DNA of 59,962 nt, counting the filler, from Ionaspis alba (taxonomy: Eukaryota), in the NCBI GenBank assembly GCA_964255285.1. It is 4 parts of 4 records of this genome, joined end to end, with 100 filler letters (N's around TTAATTAATTAA, not from the genome) between each part and the next. Parts side by side here need not be neighbours in the genome. Positions count along the whole stretch, not along the records: positions 15,036 to 29,969 come from CAXUUL010000394.1; 3 more parts are not named here. One strand, 5' to 3'. A program made the position numbers and the translations under genes. A model generated the notes under the pieces. The model ran no database searches, was not told the origin of the DNA, and saw nothing but the letters and a program-made list of their open reading frames with translations. Numbering within the stretch: the first letter of the stretch is position 1; each line of letters starts with the position of its first letter. Shown here piece after piece: positions 20,322 to 27,345 of the stretch.

Positions 20322-20992
20322 GGTCGAGTGGAGGTTTAGTGGAATTTTCGAAAGGTTTGGATGAAGGTGCCCGACCGTAGGGCCGGAAATTGATATTAAA
20401 TTGAATGGGACAATAGACAGGGATATCAAGATATACGACGATCTCAATGTGCAAACTATATACAGGTCGACACGAATAACAAAGAGAAATAAGGAAATAC
20501 GGGAGGGCGTTTGGTTTTCATGGGTGCATAGAAATGGGGCTCGCGCGGCATACTGGCTTGACAGTGCATCAAAACTAGATTGTTAATAGCCTTGGTTGAG
20601 AAACTGGCGCTTAGGAAATGAATCTATCAGCTTGGTGGAGCGAACAAAACCACTCGGGGTGTAGATTATCCAACTTGTTCCTCTGGTCTTTACTATACGG
20701 ACATAGCTAACGCACGACAAGCGCTCTTTGTACAAAAATGAAATCCATGATCTAGAATAGTGAAAAAGAAGTGAGAGTCATGTATGATCGAGACATCCTC
20801 CAAGACAATAAGTGTCAAGCAGTATCGAGCTTCATTAGTATTGGTTACTATCATGATCTATCGTGTAAACTCATTGCACCTTAAGCCCTAAGNNNNNNNN
20901 NNNNNNNNNNNNNNNNNNNNNNNNNNNNNNNNNNNNNNNNNNNNNNNNNNNNNNNNNNNNNNNNNNNNNNNNNNNNNNNNNNNNNNNNNNNN

Positions 20993-21345
20993 GTCTGATC
21001 TGGTACCTGCTGAGGATTTGGAAGGTCGAAGGATATATGCTCGAATAGATCCGGGATTAGTTGATACATTGATTGAATAGTATCGGAAGCTTGAGGGGGG
21101 GCCGGTGGTGCAACAGAGGGTGTCGCGGGTTTCCCAGCGTGACCGTGAGGCTTAGGGACCCCATTGGAGTGTGGCTGTGCGTGCCCGTCTCCACCGAGTC
21201 CACCACCACCGTGCCCGCCCTTGCCGTGCCTCCCGCCGCCGCCATGTCCGCTGCGAGCATCGCGAACTTCCAGATGTGGCGCTGCCACAGCAAGACTCGC
21301 TGAGCCAAGAATTGTAGTTAGAAGGACGACGCCTAGACCCTTCAT
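20993..21345 (-). CDS. Secreted Gly/His/Pro-rich protein, 3' end in gap
   Basis: Signal peptide MKGLGVVLLTTILGSASLAVAAP, then GHGGGGRHGKGGHGGGG...; the frame is open up to the N gap. Confidence 0.6.
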
Positions 21346-21815
21346 GACGACTAGTGAATCTGGAAATCTTGAAATCTGGAAATGTATTTGAATCCGGTAT
21401 GTGTGTAGAGAATGCAACGAGATGAACACTGTGCCAGACAGCTTAGAGAAGAAAGGAAATGATTGCAGTGCAGAAAATGATAAACAAGCACATCGCGAAC
21501 CATATATACCTCTTCCTGCGCGGCTTGCAGAAGCCAACTCAAAACTTGCTTATCAAACAGACAATAACTTGAGTTAGAATGCGGGAGGCGGGTAAAATCC
21601 TAGCGGCGTGCAGACGAAAGTTCGGAAAGTCGGTCCGTCTTCTGCGCCGTATGACCAATGCGCATCAGCCGCAATTAGATATCGTGATGACCAGCTGCCC
21701 TCAAATCCGGTCCGCGCGCAAAAGAACCTCAGCGAATGATGATTTTCCTATGTTTGAAAGGAAACCCTGAATGGAAGGATGAGCTACCCAATGATCAAGG
21801 AACCTAAATCGGTCG

Positions 21816-24800
21816 TTACAGAATTGCATCTATGATCGCACCCTTGATCATGCTTCTGATACTAAAATGATTCACCGGTCGTGAATTCGTAGGCTGTTGT
21901 AGATGATTCGGCAGTGGTTCGACTCTCGTCAGTGGTTCAACCTTTCCCAGTGGTTCGACTTTCGCCAGTGGTACGTCTTCCGTTGGAGATGGTATTTTTT
22001 GGGGCGCAGTAATATCCAGTATTTTCCGGCGTATGAGGAATTCCGTAAGATTTGGAACATTGTGCTTCTGAGCGAGAGAGTGCAGCGTATCACCGTATGC
22101 GTCCGGGACGTCATCAATCAACGGGGCATTGTCTAGGAGGAGTTGGATAACTGGCAGGTAGTTGCACCGCCATGGCTTGTTAGCGGTATTAGCCAAACCA
22201 TAGGCTCCTATTGCATAATGCGACGCCATCCGATTTATGTAGTCCTTCTTGAACCTTTCGGCGCCGTGTTTGAGCAGGAGTTTAGTCATTGGCAAGATCT
22301 CCCATACCAACTCGTGGTTCTCTCGGTATTGCACAATCTCCATCAGTGGAGTACTCTTGAAATCGTTTCCAGCATTGACATGGGCCCGTGCGCGAATCAG
22401 GATTTCTGCCATTTCTACGTAACCATAACGGCAGGCATAGTGCAATGGAGTGTTTCGCAAATTGTCTTCCACTCTGACACTGAAACCGGACTCGATCAGC
22501 AGAGACAGCAATCGCTTGTTTGGTGTCCGTACAGCCAAGTGAACTGGCGATTTCGTCCAGAGCAATCCGTTGGCTACCTTTCTGAATACCTTGCCGTGTT
22601 TGAGAAGGAACATAATGGACTTTTCGAAAACCGCTGCGGCATCACTGCCTTCCTCAACTGCGCAATATGCATCCAGAAGTTTATTAAACACCGTCAGACC
22701 GGAGGAGTCTTCTTGATCAATCGGAATACCGGCTGCCAGGAGGATATTCAATGTCCCTTCGTTGCATTGAACAGCGGCGCCATATAGAGCATCGCAGTCT
22801 CTATCCTGGACATCTCGATCAGAGGTGCTGGTAATCGGGGCAGACGTACGATTTCCTACAGGCGAAAGACTTTTGCGCCTCGTGCCTTTCTTTTCTGGAT
22901 TTAGTTTGTCATTTTCGTCCACGAGGAGCTGGGGAAGAAGTATTTGCCACTTTGGTTCATGAATATCGGAAGATAGTAGATCTCCCTCTTCTGCTTGATG
23001 ATACCCAGTAGTAAGGTCTGGAAGTGACACAACTCTTTTGGCTTCTGCGGTTATGGGTATTGCTAGCTGTTCTTTTGCGCCTCCAATCTTGTTGTCGGTC
23101 GAGCTCGAGTTCAAGGCACAGGGAGGCAATGCAGGCTTCCAAGACGGACGAGGGGGAAACTCGTGAAGAGCTTTAGGGGAGGAGCGATCTTTCTCAGGCT
23201 CTTCGGTTTGAGGCAATGCATGCTTCCAAGATGTACGAGGAGGGAGATACTCGTGAAGAGCTTTAGGGGAGGAGCGATCTTTCTCAGGCTCTTCGGTTTG
23301 AGGCAATGCATGCTTCCAAGATGTACGAGGAGGGAGATACTCGTGAAGAGCTTTAAGGGAGGAGCGATCCTTCTCAGGCTCTTTGATTTGAGGAAAGACA
23401 CGTCGATGAAGACTTGTTGCATTTGGACCTAGTCCTTTGTTCTGAGGCTGGTCCTTGACCGGTGTTGATAAGTCCAAGGTCCATAAAGAGTCCCTAATTT
23501 TATTCGGCACTGCAGGAGATCCAGCCAATGCAGTTATTGGGCTTGGAAAGTTGACGTCCGGCAATAACGAGTCCCATGGCTTGTTCGGGGCTACTCGAGG
23601 GGTCCCAGACGATGTGTTTGATGGGTTGGGCTCTATTATTCTCGGTATGTTAGTCGCTGTATTGTCCGACGTCTGCTCCTTTGGTCGAGGTGGCGTTGAT
23701 AGCCTTCTTGCGGAGGAACGAGGCGGCGCCGGCTCTGCTCTCAAGGTAGGAGCTATCGGTACACCCAGCGCCTGAGGTGAGGATGCCGTCTTGAGATGAC
23801 GTCTTTGCTTTCGAGATGCCAATATGTCCCTAGGCTCTAGAAATGGAGATGGTGAAGGCATTTTAGGACTGGAGGGCTCTACCTTCAGCGTCTCTTTCTG
23901 CTCAACGGTACTTTCCTTTGCATCGCCAGTCTTTGGCTTACTAGTCGAACGCCTCGGATTGGATATCGATGTGGGCTTTTTTGTAACCGAGTCGCGTACT
24001 TTCTCCTCCGTTGCCGTATTTGACGCTTCTAAATCTGAAAGTGCTAGATCAGAAGCTAAAGTCGCGGTCGGTGAAACATCAGGGCTGCCTCTCACAATCC
24101 ACGACTCTTTCAAGGCAACATCAACCTTTGGACGGTTCCGCGGTTGAACTGCCATCAGACCTCTGATGAAAGCACCTCCGTCTGAACTTATCTGCTGGGC
24201 GTGGAGAAGATCAAGCGGAAATGGAATTGTAGATCGGCAATATGAGCCAAGTGCATTGACTGAGAAGGGCACAGCTCCTACAACGAGCTGAAACAATATA
24301 CAACCAAGGCTCCACACATCCACAGCAGTTATAACTGTATCATTGGGCTCGATATCAATCAGTCCACGTATCTCGGGTGCCATGTAGTCCCAAGTGCCCA
24401 CCACAGTGTTCTGAAGGCTTTGACCGTCGAGGAATCTTTTACTCCCTCCAAAGTCCCCAATCTTGACCCACCATCTAGGCGAGGGACCAAAGACAAGAAT
24501 GTTCTGTGGTTTGAGATCACGATGCGTCCATCCCAGTGCGTGTAAATTTTGCAGTCCCTCCAAAAGCTGCTGGGCGATGTCTCTGACTTCGGTCTCAGGA
24601 AGCTTCTTATCAAGGTGTCGTTGCAGATCGCCATGTGGACAATACTGCATAGCAAGGAAGACGTATTCGAGAGACTCAAACCACCCATAGAACTGCACAA
24701 AGTACCTGTCGGCCTGTTTGTGCATTGTCAGCCAGGACACTTCTCTGAAAGTTACGCGGTCAGACAGACCTTGGACAGCCGGCTGAGGGCCAGTAGCTCC

Positions 24801-25066
24801 CTGTCATAGTCTATCGGGAGATCCTTCTTCTTGATCTGCTTCACTGCTCTTGATTTTCCCTTCGAATGCCGCTCGTGCTCGAGCCAAACGGTGCCAAATG
24901 TTCCATCGCCAATTTCTTGGATTCTTGTCCATTCCTTGACGATCCTGACGTTGCGCAAGCCCTTCTCTGGATCTGAAGTCTCGAGGATCTCCTTCGTAGA
25001 ACTGGTTACAGGATCGAAATGAGCATCCAATTTGAAGAAGCTGACAAGGTCGGACTTGAGCGCCAT
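21816..25066 (-). CDS. Ser/Thr protein kinase - disordered linker - ankyrin repeat protein
   Basis: Exon 1 has IGDGTFGTVW and AVKQI; intron 24714-24769; exon 2 has HRDLKPQNIL, KIGDFG, YMAPE and DVWSLG. C-terminal ankyrin repeats SPVHLAV, TPLHYAC, TPLMEIV. Confidence 0.92.
23124..23393. repeat. Coding tandem repeat, 90-bp unit, about 3 copies
   Basis: TCGTGAAGAGCTTTA recurs at 23161, 23251 and 23341. The repeat encodes EPEKDRSSPKALHEYLPPRTSWKHALPQTE. Confidence 0.95.
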
Positions 25067-25608
25067 TTGGCGCTGCCCTGAGACGTCCAGAGCAAAGCCT
25101 CCAAGTCTTGTACAGTCCGTTCACGCATCATACACGCCATAAAGCGTTCGAGATGAGCAAAGGTTCAACGATAGCTATTGGATCCAATCGCACATCGCGG
25201 ACAAGTGGTACCTACGATACCGACGCAGATTGAAGACCATTATCGATGTGAAGCATGCTGTAAGATATCGCATGAGACAGACCCTCAATGCGTCGAGAGC
25301 TGAAAGAGCTGCCCTAATCCTCAAAAAGTAAAGACTGTGGCGGACCCGAGTCGAGGTTCGGTGTTGCGGCCGAGGAGCGGCGGGTGGCTTGGATGGAAGA
25401 CCAAATGGGGCAGTCCAAGATTTGAATATGCCGGGAGAGAGACAACCCTTGACTGGTGGATGACTTCCTCCAAGACTTCACAGTCTCTCGCGTTGGAAAC
25501 ATAGCCTTGCCAATTAGATAATGGTATGAGAATATATTTATGCGTACCTTTATAGCACAATCAATATAGTTCTCAAGCGTACTGGATGTGTTATTCAGAT
25601 TAGGGGAA

Positions 25609-27345
25609 ATGGACGGAGTGAGCTTTGCTTTCGCGACACTAAGCGCGGTCGATTTATGCCTCAAGTACATCTCTCGTCCAACGATGAGTCCAGTAACATT
25701 GGCTGATAGAAACATGAGAGAAGGTACGGAAAAGAATTGATGAGACGATATCGAGTGTATCGGGACGCGGAAACCATCATCCATGAGCTTGTCCTACGCG
25801 TCGAGGATAGATGGCTCAAGATGGAGATTCAGATGGAGTTCCTGCGGTCCGTATGGGATACCTTAGAAGAGCGTCTGCAGCTACACCAAAATCGGGTGCT
25901 CCAGCTACTACTATCGAAGCTTCACGAAGCGCTGGCCATTTTCGACGGCACTGCTGATAGCGAGAAAGATGAGGTTGTTCGAAAAACCGTGGTTGGAAAG
26001 ATGGGTAAGTTGAAGAGAGCCAAATTCGCTATGTCCGTTCGAGACTGTCTGGTCAAGACCGTCCAAGAACTCGAACGCTGGCAAAGTGTCTTTGATCCCT
26101 CATGGTACATACTCATTCGTGTCCATCACTCTGCCATTGACAAGCAGCTTGCGCTGCGGCAGGTTGACGAGCATGCTCATGGTTCGTTATCAATCCTGGG
26201 AAGACTCCGCGCCAGTATCAATGCTCCCTCTGATACCCAGACTCAGAAGAGATCAGTGTTTGTGGAAGAAAGCATCCTGCAGCCAGAGCGATTCGCGATC
26301 CGTCATTCCCAATCTCAATCAGCGATCTTGAAGGCGAGCAAGGAGATGGTGCTCATGGATTCAATTCGCCCAGACGAGAGATTAGACATTACTGCCATGA
26401 CTAGAGACATACGGGACCTTGCAAGAAACCTGTATGAAGTAGACTGCTTTACGTTTGGATTACTCTCATGTCTCGGAGTTATCAAGGTAACTGGTACGGA
26501 GCGCAATATTACAGGCTTCGATTTTGTCTTCAGCATTCCGAAGAGTCTAAGTAATCCTCGAAGTCTTCGCAGCATTTTGCTTGCCCCCGGCTCAAAAACC
26601 TCTCTCAATGAACGTTTCGCTCTGGCAAAACTACTTGCCAGATCAGTCTTCTTTATGCATACTTCGAGCTTTGTGCACAAGAATATTCGTCCAGAGACTA
26701 TCGTTGTCTTCCAAGACGGGACATCGAAAATTGGGAAGCCCTTTCTCGTAGGCTTTGAAAAATTCCGAGTTGATACGACCCACACACACCGGCTTGGAGA
26801 CGACCTATGGGAGCGTAATCTGTACCGACATCCTCAACGACAAGGCCTGAGACCTGAGGAAGACTTCATCATGCAACATGACATATATTCCTTGGGTGTG
26901 GTTCTCCTAGAGATTGGACTACAGACTTCCTTCGTGCGGCTCACCCCGAGACCAATCGACGATAAGTCAGATACCGCTGGTAACAATGAGTCCAGTGAAG
27001 GCATAAGTCAAGCAACACCAACACCAATGCTCAAGATCGCGGATCTCTTGTCCTTGAAAAATATGCGGAAAAAGGCGGATGCTATCAAAGACCGTTTCAT
27101 AGCGATTGCAAATGAGCAACTACCGTGTGCTATGGGCCAGAGATACACAGATGTCGTGATTTCTTGTCTGACCTGCTTGGACAAAGATAACGGCTTCGGC
27201 GATCAGAGCGAGTTTGAGGATCAGGACGGGATACTTGTTGGTGTACGCTACATCGAGAAGGTAAGTCTTGAATCACGGCGATCTGCCGTCTAAGCTCACT
27301 AAGACCCTACAGATCCTTACTCAGCTCGATGGAATCTCCGTCTGA
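25609..27345 (+). CDS. HeLo-like (HET-s/LopB-type) helical domain fused to a pseudokinase
   Basis: Spliced start MDGVSFAFATLSAVDLCLKYGKEL (intron about 25666-25723) and a helical N-domain. Kinase-like C-lobe HKNIRPETIVVF, FLVGFE, LYRHPQRQG, HDIYSLGVVLLEIG. Last intron 27261-27312. Confidence 0.82.

Follow-up and report, generated by a model that had tools for sequence, protein, structure and literature searches.

Two genes in head-to-head orientation occupy positions 21816-27293 of the window, the 59,962-nucleotide stretch of Ionaspis alba DNA (GCA_964255285.1) that was analysed, within the part derived from CAXUUL010000394.1 (15,036-29,969). A sequence-only reading had described two divergent genes sharing about 540 bp, and their start codons indeed lie 542 bp apart; the intergenic region between the two ATGs (25067-25608) presumably serves as a bidirectional promoter. 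The pair is on a gap-free stretch, as had been claimed, with N runs confined to ORFs at 20871-21151, which lie outside the pair. The span originally given, 21816-27345, starts correctly at the end of the gene 1 stop codon but ends 52 bp beyond the stop codon of gene 2.

Gene 1 runs on the minus strand from its ATG at 25066 to 21816 and encodes 1064 amino acids, interrupted by a single 56-nt intron. Exon 1 (24770-25066) encodes a conserved N-terminal extension of about 45 residues followed by the G-loop and beta3 Lys of a kinase domain, and as a tblastn query it matched partner genes in 29 loci. The predicted intron (24714-24769, GTCTGT...ACAG) has CTGAC branch-like sites, and its removal restores the register of the homologues (alignment A3). 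Exon 2 (21816-24713, stop codon included) completes the kinase domain and adds a long Ser/Pro-rich linker and ankyrin repeats; in the linker, Tandem Repeats Finder detected three 90-bp tandem repeats encoding 30-residue units (23123-23393; 94% matches, score 472). The intron-spanning catalytic domain (24096-24928) carries GDGTFG (residue 53), AVK (74), HRDLKPQN (163), DFG (186) and APE (211), and the protein matched Pfam Pkinase (2.1e-40) and Ank_2 (2.5e-15). The bounds of the ankyrin region (22305-22616; Ank_2, Ank, Ank_4 and Ank_5; residues 705-808 of the exon 2 fragment) are those of the Pfam-detected part, and the region may extend further. With all five motifs present, the description of gene 1 as a catalytically intact kinase with ankyrin repeats was borne out, and by its sequence the product is a catalytically competent Ser/Thr kinase. 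Beyond the fungal clade to which it belongs, it is closest to ATG1/ULK and MAP3K12/13-type kinases, so that the label "RIPK-like" in the sequence-only reading holds as an analogy only and not as kinship with RIPK. Neither protein of the pair had a NACHT or NB-ARC domain in the Pfam scan, in agreement with that reading, and no amyloid motif was noted in the pair.

A predicted helical bundle and a degraded kinase domain in gene 2

Gene 2 lies on the plus strand from its ATG at 25609 to 27293 and encodes 541 amino acids with a single 59-nt intron. Exon 1 (25609-25664) contributes codons 1-18 and two bases of the 19th, which form the hydrophobic start of helix 1, and the remaining ORF with its stop codon is exon 2 (25724-27293). 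The predicted intron (25665-25723, GTACAT...CTGAT...AAG) is the sole option that yields the CLK/YGKEL junction of the homologues, and the spliced N-terminus matches full-length homologues such as P0004. The family search retrieved 1882 proteins at E <= 1e-3 (8000 candidates scored), and some genomes have more than one member, with two each in Endocarpon and Toensbergia.

The AlphaFold model of the orthologue P0004 (pLDDT 78 for residues 1-200) predicts that the N-terminal domain (25609-26252) forms a four-helix bundle (helices 3-29, 36-65, 68-96 and 114-142) followed by linker, "brace"-like helices (144-198), and the hydrophobic first helix is kept throughout the family alignment. In a structure search against 48,161 chains, the MLKL four-helix bundle (4HB), AtMLKL3 and the CC domains of Rx, NRG1 and MLA13 appeared within the top 23, with AtMLKL3 (6ka4) at rank 23 (Z 7.7). 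Scores for MLKL and the plant CC domains (Z 7.7-9.9) were lower than those for unrelated bundles (IncA, the Cbl TKB domain and designed proteins; Z 11-13.2), and a helical-bundle Z under about 13 may reflect a common arrangement. Foldseek with the N-domain alone gave no match at E <= 1e-3. Pfam HeLo was absent among the matches listed in two scans of gene 2 family members (24 and 73); 25 of 44 families are listed for the second, so HeLo could match at most single members there. PigL_N/Helo_like_N matched 5 of the 97 members (best E 0.0077), and the gene 2 N-domain itself is below the Pfam HeLo and Helo_like_N thresholds. Of the earlier proposal of a HeLo/4HB-like domain, the four-helix-bundle likeness is thus supported by the predicted model, whereas the Pfam scans lend no support to membership of the HeLo family.

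The kinase-like domain (26253-27290) has a predicted TK/TKL-type fold. A PDB profile search found B-Raf, LIMK1 and IRAK4 at E about 2e-8, and VIA Z scores to TK/TKL kinases were 20-22.6; the human MLKL pseudokinase (Z 20.1, 19% identity) was no closer than MerTK, HER2 and B-Raf (21-22.6). Pfam DUF7580, PK_Tyr_Ser-Thr and Pkinase all remained below threshold for this domain. DUF7580 (PF24476), a domain of unknown function of which we found no mention in the literature searched, matched the kinase-like domain in 20/24 and 17/73 family members at E <= 1 and is a precomputed annotation of several database homologues; the window's protein scored 23.3 bits, short of the cut-off of 27.

The catalytic motifs are degraded, consistent with the earlier description of a helical N-domain with a hydrophobic first helix fused to a dead kinase domain. 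HKN (in FVHKN; 26676-26684) replaces HRD in a HMMER alignment to B-Raf, with loss of the catalytic Asp; its H and K are invariant in family alignment A1, and the N is not among the conserved columns listed. Right after the predicted beta8 strand (358-365 in the P0004 model, preceding G367), GFE (26751-26759) replaces DFG, with G and F invariant and E in at least 90% of rows (alignments A1 and A4). GxGxxG is missing, and the predicted beta3 strand has Asp at the position where MLKL keeps Lys, indicating that nucleotide binding probably differs. Nine residues past GFE, the nearly invariant Thr373 (26784-26786) is a candidate phospho-acceptor; its equivalent in P0004, T378, is shared by at least 90% of rows and lies in a low-confidence loop (pLDDT below 50 at residues 375-379). 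When the full-length model was compared with 350,542 PDB chains by Foldseek, the best match was mouse MLKL (4btf, E 1.8e-7), aligned over 494 columns spanning both domains, by a narrow lead over IRAK4 (2.1e-7) and with an rmsd of 14.9. From these models, the gene 2 product appears MLKL-like in its hydrophobic first helix, four-helix bundle, linker helices and GFE pseudokinase.

Adjacency and co-divergence with partner kinases

The sequence-only reading had proposed that linkage to an active kinase and co-phylogeny be checked across relatives. The best 80 of 342 confirmed gene 2 relatives, on metagenome contigs and 32-52% identical to the query, formed 59 clusters at >=90% nucleotide identity, 41 of which extended 1 kb or more upstream. 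A gene-1-type kinase, detected by tblastn, was found head-to-head within 1.3 kb in 29/41 clusters and within 2.6 kb in any orientation in 34/41, and none was found in 7/41. Three more clusters with upstream flanks too short to count also adjoin a kinase. In the 325,173 bp of flanking DNA situated beyond 3 kb, used as background against 246,239 bp of near DNA, a single kinase match reached 80 bits or more, and an active kinase therefore adjoins gene 2 relatives well beyond chance. Relatives kept the head-to-head spacing, with 360-1300 bp separating the kinase match from the first residue matched in the gene 2 relative. The L006 contig, about 95% identical to the paired L010, has no kinase upstream. 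Among named genomes, Endocarpon pusillum carries the adjacent tags GJ744_001724 (kinase-TPR, P0129) and GJ744_001725 (P0055), and in Fonsecaea erecta the tags AYL99_08440 and AYL99_08442 lie two apart. Peltula is a further named genome with both partners of a pair. The two families also co-diverge: across 30 pairs the Mantel r was 0.72, reached by 0 of 2000 permutations, and the nearest neighbour was identical in both families for 13/30 pairs. Adjacency and co-divergence together strongly support a functional link, the nature of which they leave unspecified.

The partner kinases kept G59, K78, E97, HRD, N177, DFG and APE in 11/11 aligned homologues (A3), and their C-termini varied. Scanning 32 loci revealed WD40 (6), ANK (2), TPR (1), KA1 (1) and WW (1) domains, and the 20 best database homologues of the kinase had ANK (8, the window's own included), WD40 (5) or TPR (2). 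Such ANK, WD40 and TPR repeats are carried by fungal NLRs and gasdermin-controlling proteases, according to the accessible part of PMC12881547, and we infer that the variable C-terminus is a ligand-sensing or autoinhibitory module.

Possible functions of the pair

The explanation that we prefer as a whole, and to which we give an even chance, is that the pair represents one instance of a two-gene cassette present across Pezizomycotina, a kinase-triggered MLKL-like cell-death cassette; it combines the observed gene structures, motifs, adjacency and co-divergence with the modelled folds. The shared 542-bp divergent promoter would co-express both genes. A signal received by the C-terminal repeats would activate the gene 1 kinase, which would dock on the gene 2 pseudokinase domain and phosphorylate the activation loop there, with Thr373 as the candidate site. 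Phosphorylation would free the N-terminal bundle, which might then oligomerise, disrupt membranes and kill the cell in a defence or allorecognition response.

Compact fungal genomes often contain divergent gene pairs, and the two genes could be unrelated neighbours sharing an intergenic region by chance; this is extremely improbable and is refuted by the 29/41 and 34/41 linked clusters against one match in 325 kb and by co-divergence. A realistic, though on balance improbable, alternative is a kinase/pseudokinase signalling module that does not kill, as in the partnerships STRAD-LKB1 and KSR-RAF, with the pseudokinase as scaffold, allosteric partner or substrate-adaptor and the bundle as a protein-interaction or localisation domain instead of a membrane-disrupting one. 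Adjacency and co-divergence are compatible with it since they show a link and not its nature, the N-domain matches MLKL no better than it does non-lytic four-helix bundles, gene 2 has no Pfam HeLo membership, and housekeeping genes surround the pair with no NLR nearby. However, family-wide conservation of the hydrophobic first helix, the domain order shared with MLKL (bundle, linker helices, then GFE pseudokinase), the ANK/WD40/TPR set of the partner kinases, typical of fungal immune receptors, and the multiple family members in genomes such as Endocarpon and Toensbergia argue against this alternative.

The sign of the control could also be reversed, with the kinase binding or phosphorylating the MLKL-like protein to keep it inactive, as a guard or antidote, and death following kinase inhibition, degradation or loss, for example through a pathogen effector or fusion with a strain in which the matching kinase is missing. 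Co-inheritance from a bidirectional promoter would supply the matched dosage that this needs, and there is a precedent in human RIPK3, which is reported to keep MLKL inactive before activation (accessible part of PMC8608796). We consider it unlikely, because a strict antidote model would make gene 2 lethal wherever no kinase adjoins it, as in 7/41 clusters and L006, unless one acts in trans, and because variable sensor-like C-termini suit an activator better. We found no description of a kinase and MLKL-like gene pair in the literature searched. Since an active kinase and an MLKL-like gene adjoin in most relatives examined, phosphorylation-triggered fungal cell death is directly testable; if the kinase-triggered cassette is real, it would be a cell-death pathway in fungi triggered by phosphorylation.

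Comparison with known systems

In the vertebrate RIPK3-MLKL system, whose mouse MLKL gave the full-length gene 2 model its best PDB match, physical pairing of the two genes has to our knowledge not been described, and we know of no RHIM in the fungal kinase. Unlike RIPK3, the fungal kinase falls outside the RIPK and TKL kinases and has ANK, WD40 or TPR repeats instead. The fungal pseudokinase differs from MLKL in lacking the beta3 Lys and in having HKN rather than HGK, and its N-domain is at most a putative homologue of that of MLKL. Human MLKL has GFE, as does gene 2, and its activation loop is phosphorylated a few residues past this motif (accessible part of PMC5104457).

Plant MLKLs share the bundle and kinase-like architecture with gene 2 by domain description and fold only, and a neighbouring kinase dedicated to their activation is not known to us. 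AtMLKL1-3 and wheat Pm13 combine a HeLo/4HB-like N-domain with a kinase-like domain and act in immunity, as described in the accessible parts of bioRxiv 10.1101/681015 and PMC10951266. In fungi, gene 2 probably belongs to the HELL/HeLo-kinase/pseudokinase fusion kind, and its homologue P0109 (Wilcoxina) bears the source label "HET-s/LopB domain protein", although the gene 2 N-domain, in contrast to such fusions, is below the Pfam HeLo and Helo_like_N thresholds. The accessible parts of the literature on these fusions do not mention an adjacent active kinase or a mode of activation.

In NWD2/HET-S, PNT1/HELLP and protease/gasdermin, the gene for a sensor bearing ANK, WD40 or TPR repeats adjoins that of the membrane-targeting executioner under its control (accessible part of PMC12881547). 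The Ionaspis pair differs from the NLR pairs in having no NACHT or NB-ARC domain and no noted amyloid motif, and it resembles the gasdermin pairs in that an enzyme would modify the executioner. Whereas the known fungal death pairs use amyloid templating or proteolysis, with NLRs or proteases as sensors, the enzyme of this pair is a protein kinase.

Anatomy of the gene pair and its surroundings

The start codons of the two divergent genes are separated by 542 bp, in agreement with the earlier reading of about 540 bp (25067-25608). The kinase-ankyrin gene (gene 1) starts with an ATG at 25066 on the minus strand and encodes a predicted product of 1064 aa through exon 1 (25066-24770), a 56-nt predicted intron with GT...AG boundaries (24769-24714) and exon 2 (24713-21816). 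A conserved extension of about 45 residues precedes its complete kinase domain, in which GDGTFG, AVK, HRDLKPQN, DFG and APE are all present (Pfam Pkinase 2.1e-40), and a long Ser/Pro-rich linker and then ankyrin repeats follow. The proposal of a catalytically intact kinase with ankyrin repeats thus stands for all five motifs. Pfam families in gene 1 are limited to Pkinase-type and ankyrin, and at E <= 0.1 neither protein contains NACHT or NB-ARC, the NTPase domains of fungal NLRs, in agreement with the sequence-only reading. Within the disordered linker, three 90-bp tandem repeats with 94% matches (23123-23393) encode 30-aa units, and an 18-bp unit occurs in 3.7 copies near the 3' end of the gene (21907-21972). 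The database entry for gene 1 (P0122, 969 aa) lacks exon 1.

Gene 2, which encodes the helical domain and the kinase-like domain, starts with an ATG at 25609 on the plus strand and has a predicted product of 541 aa. Exon 1 has only 56 nt and encodes a mostly hydrophobic 19-residue start; a predicted 59-nt intron (25665-25723) follows, whose splicing yields the N-terminus of full-length homologues, and exon 2 runs to the stop at 27293. Most automated models of the family (homologues P0002-P0121; 25609-25723 in the window) miss this short first exon. The N-terminal motif pattern was matched in only 18 of 120 homologues, with a few more carrying a variant, and several models either have their start within helix 2 or translate across the intron; P0002 (486 aa), the database entry for the window's gene 2, begins 55 residues too late. 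Many automated annotations therefore drop a 19-codon exon for a first helix that is presumed to be functionally critical.

The host is a filamentous ascomycete, and the closest named homologues come from Xylographa (57% identity). The gene 2 family is large and belongs to Pezizomycotina, with 1882 proteins at E <= 1e-3 among 8000 candidates scored and named members in Lecanoromycetes, Eurotiomycetes, Dothideomycetes, Geoglossomycetes and Pezizomycetes. The genes around the pair in the window (1-59962) are housekeeping genes, encoding a RhoGEF-type DH/PH protein, GH1, isopropylmalate synthase, BCS1, an MFS transporter, GDA1/CD39, mitochondrial RNA polymerase, eIF4G and DNA polymerase alpha, and near the pair this window shows neither an NLR nor any other death-related gene. 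Just past the 3' end of gene 1, the product of a small minus-strand ORF (20881-21549) without a Pfam match begins with hydrophobic, signal-peptide-like residues and continues as Gly/His-rich low complexity, and the end of the ORF is cut by an assembly gap (N run at about 20890-20990).

Conserved adjacency and co-divergence

The neighbourhood of gene 2 relatives was surveyed in metagenome contigs, using the best 80 of 342 confirmed relatives (32-52% identity, flanks of up to 10 kb), which were chosen by their similarity to gene 2. Partners were sought by tblastn with the gene 1 kinase and 20 homologues, with thresholds set for this analysis. Loci with 90% identity or more were merged into 59 clusters, and 41 of these have upstream flanks of 1 kb or longer. 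A gene-1-type kinase lies head-to-head within 1.3 kb in 29 of these 41, divergent at 2.4 kb in one, upstream in tandem orientation in three and downstream in one, so that 34 of 41 carry it within 2.6 kb in some orientation. By comparison, the 325,173 bp lying more than 3 kb from the gene 2 match yielded a single kinase match of at least 80 bits, and the expectation that homologues are linked to an active divergent kinase was borne out. Three further clusters, with upstream flanks too short to count, have the kinase alongside all the same. In the seven clusters where the kinase is absent nearby, the upstream genes encode an aldo-keto reductase, GST, JmjC or DUF1996 protein or have no match; they are mutually unrelated and no recurring substitute partner was seen among them. 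The arrangement is also found in named genomes, as in Endocarpon pusillum, where a kinase-TPR gene (GJ744_001724) and an MLKL-like gene (GJ744_001725) have consecutive locus tags, and in Fonsecaea erecta (AYL99_08440 and AYL99_08442).

Some contigs record rearrangements around the pair. Two that are 93-96% identical (L018:7011-9796 and L041:7008-9761) differ by a clean 2.8-kb inversion of exactly the partner kinase-WD40 gene, which is head-to-head in L018 and tandem in L041. Another two (L006:1-8617 and L010) share 95% identity in a stretch that starts some 300 bp ahead of the MLKL-like gene and runs on through it; farther upstream, L006 carries DNA found downstream in L010 and no kinase, an arrangement that is either a partner-removing rearrangement or an assembly chimera. 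In three contigs (L022:20213-21141, L017:13331-14253 and L010:6044-6823) an additional Pkinase ORF, of gene-1 type or other, lies a few kb from the pair, which hints at local kinase duplication.

Over 30 pairs, pairwise distances in the one family track those in the other (Mantel r 0.72, a value that none of 2000 permutations reached), in line with the co-phylogeny that had been proposed as a check, and the nearest neighbour is identical in both families for 13 of the 30. Part of this correlation would be expected from shared descent alone. Taken with the adjacency, the correlated distances indicate, at the level of sequence comparison, joint inheritance of the two genes, which have presumably been duplicated together too. 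A functional link between gene 1 and gene 2 is well supported.

Architecture of the helical domain-pseudokinase protein

Structure models were made on P0004, an orthologue 57% identical to the gene 2 product, and are predictions. Residues 1-200 modelled alone (pLDDT 78, pTM 0.64) form bundle helices at 3-29, 36-65, 68-96 and 114-142; a short helix separates the third from the fourth. Three "brace" helices, predicted at 144-151, 155-168 and 173-191/198, link the bundle to the first beta strands of the kinase-like domain (pLDDT 52-74). The long first helix is the hydrophobic segment at the protein start and is conserved in full-length homologues. The predicted fold of the N-terminal domain is thus a four-helix bundle plus linker helices, and the claim of a helical domain with a hydrophobic first helix holds.

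The more specific claim, that this domain resembles HeLo or the MLKL four-helix bundle, held in part. In VIA, a structure search reported by Z score, mouse MLKL (4btf) matched the N-terminal domain over 99 residues, N-terminus on N-terminus, with Z 9.4 and rmsd 2.5. Comparable scores were obtained with the Rx-CC of potato (9.4), the NRG1.1 CC-R (8.1), MLA13 (8.1), human MLKL (6zz1, 8.2) and AtMLKL3 (7.7). In the exhaustive search several MLKL-type bundles fall within the top 23 of 48,161 chains, but unrelated bundles such as IncA, Cbl TKB and designed proteins outscore them (Z 11-13.2), and VIA itself carries a warning on helical bundles. Neither VIA list has a HET-s HeLo structure among its first 50 entries, which is absence and not exclusion, and Foldseek with the N-terminal model alone gave no match at E <= 1e-3.

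Sequence profiles did not place the domain in HeLo either. An alignment profile of the N-terminal domain without helix 1 (A5) had 647 matches at E <= 1e-3 among 1.84 billion representatives, and the best 150 of these, judged by length and match position, seem to be members of the gene 2 family, whole or fragmentary; 73 of the listed matches were scanned with Pfam. For 24 members of the family, none of the 18 Pfam families listed is HeLo (PF14479), and for these 73 the 25 families listed out of 44 do not include it. PF17111 (PigL_N, formerly Helo_like_N) matched weakly in 3 of 24 and 2 of 73 members (5/97; best E 0.0077), none near threshold. The predicted fold is compatible with MLKL, HeLo and CC domains, and homology to them is not demonstrated; what stood of the claim is the four-helix bundle, and what did not is a HeLo assignment at the Pfam threshold or a lead over unrelated bundles.

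The C-terminal two thirds of gene 2 is a kinase-like domain in which every catalytic signature is degraded, in keeping with the dead kinase first proposed. The glycine-rich loop is absent, a nearly invariant Asp occupies the Lys position of the predicted beta3 strand, HKN stands at the HRD position, and GFE replaces DFG directly after the predicted beta8 strand. Human MLKL likewise has GFE for DFG, and its activation loop is phosphorylated shortly after GFE, according to PMC5104457. In the gene 2 family, 90% or more of the aligned rows have a Thr nine residues past GFE (Thr373 in the window protein), in a loop with pLDDT below 50, and this Thr is a candidate site for activation-loop phosphorylation.

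Profile and structure searches relate the domain to TK/TKL kinases. The 24-member profile matched B-Raf, LIMK1 and IRAK4 in the PDB at E about 2e-8 over the C-lobe, and MLKL is not among the 60 best matches listed, which are these three and similar kinases. The AlphaFold model of P0004 matched TK/TKL kinases with Z 20-22.6 in VIA, and the human MLKL pseudokinase (19% identity, the highest identity in the VIA list) with Z 20.1, tied with many kinases. When the full-length model was compared with the PDB by Foldseek, the best match was mouse MLKL, with 494 aligned columns over both domains, although its lead over IRAK4 is narrow (1.8e-7 vs 2.1e-7) and the rmsd is high. As modelled, the whole architecture of gene 2 is MLKL-like. 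DUF7580 (PF24476) is a precomputed annotation on several homologues and reaches 23.3 bits with the window protein (cut-off 27; profile positions 122-247 of 319).

Partner kinases, possible modes of control and known systems

By sequence comparison, the partner kinases are a distinct fungal clade. Gene 1 matches about 20 fungal homologues (E <= 2e-22), then a turtle protein and an algal kinase, and next ATG1/ULK, STK36 and MAP3K12/13-type kinases. Because these last are its nearest relatives outside the clade, gene 1 is not a TKL-group RIP kinase, and the RIPK-like label it had been given holds by analogy only. Every catalytic residue is kept in 11 of 11 aligned partner kinases. A search for HRD in six-frame translations of the partner loci found only 7 of 34, an undercount because an intron splits the motif in many loci, and spliced database proteins were used instead. 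The C-termini are variable. Among the 20 best database homologues, 15 carry repeats (ANK in 8, including the window's own, WD40 in 5 and TPR in 2), and 9 of 32 loci scanned have WD40 (6), ankyrin (2) or TPR (1), with single cases of KA1 and WW; the remaining loci have long ORFs without a Pfam match at E <= 1e-6, or matches likelier to come from neighbours or a second kinase ORF. A complex prediction for the cognate Endocarpon pair (P0055 in full and P0129 residues 1-312), run without controls, gave a score of 0.00, which speaks neither for nor against binding.

The best-supported reading, on which we are evenly poised, has the two genes as a cassette: an active kinase of sensor type would control the MLKL-like protein encoded beside it. 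The most likely route would be phosphorylation of the pseudokinase activation loop by the kinase, and, once freed in this way, the N-terminal bundle would act on membranes. We infer by analogy which partner controls the other, whether it activates or inhibits, that membranes are affected and that the cell dies. The intact kinase and its degraded neighbour could form a signalling pair with a non-lethal outcome, a somewhat unlikely alternative that shares the conserved adjacency and departs from the analogy suggested by the MLKL-like architecture of gene 2. The kinase might instead inhibit or guard the MLKL-like protein, which we consider quite improbable; here too the linkage would be the same, and the sign of control is what differs. 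That the genes are adjacent by chance is scarcely credible, given the 29 head-to-head pairs among 41 clusters, the near-empty background and the co-divergence of the two families.

Extending the sensor-kinase reading beyond this pair, filamentous ascomycetes might possess a NOD-less innate-immune cassette, in which interchangeable ANK, WD40 or TPR sensor kinases fire cognate MLKL-like executioners by phosphorylation, a generalization that we put forward tentatively. If it is true, fungi own a modular two-gene, kinase-to-MLKL switch of necroptosis type, which is either an ancestor of RIPK3-MLKL or a convergent counterpart; fungal signalling then has a third logic beside amyloid templating and proteolysis. 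The pair would bear on the ancient or convergent origin of the kinase-MLKL switch, and the question of phosphorylation-driven, necroptosis-like death in fungi reduces to simple pairwise experiments.

The current explanations of regulated cell death in fungi are amyloid signalling from NLRs to HeLo/HELL proteins and protease cleavage of gasdermin. The HELL domain was reportedly defined by Daskalov et al. in 2016. Fusions of HELL with kinases or pseudokinases in fungi are described as reminiscent of MLKL in a 2025 review (PMC12881547), which notes MLKL-like HELL-pseudokinase fusions with no known activator, and lists NLR/HeLo(HELL) and protease/gasdermin pairs as two-gene sensor/executioner clusters. 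No description of an adjacent active kinase for MLKL-like fusions was found in the openly accessible literature, including passages of PMC12881547, PMC9815663 and PMC10197012. A co-diverging neighbour with an intact kinase and receptor-type repeats offers a specific candidate activator for each MLKL-like protein. According to the same review (PMC12881547), ANK, WD40 and TPR are the presumed sensor repeats of fungal NLRs and of gasdermin-controlling proteases. The gene 1 clade resembles fungal NLRs in its variable C-terminal ANK, WD40 or TPR repeats, whereas gene 1 differs from them in having no NACHT or NB-ARC, and gene 2 resembles animal and plant MLKL in its predicted brace helices and C-terminal pseudokinase, with GFE as in human MLKL.
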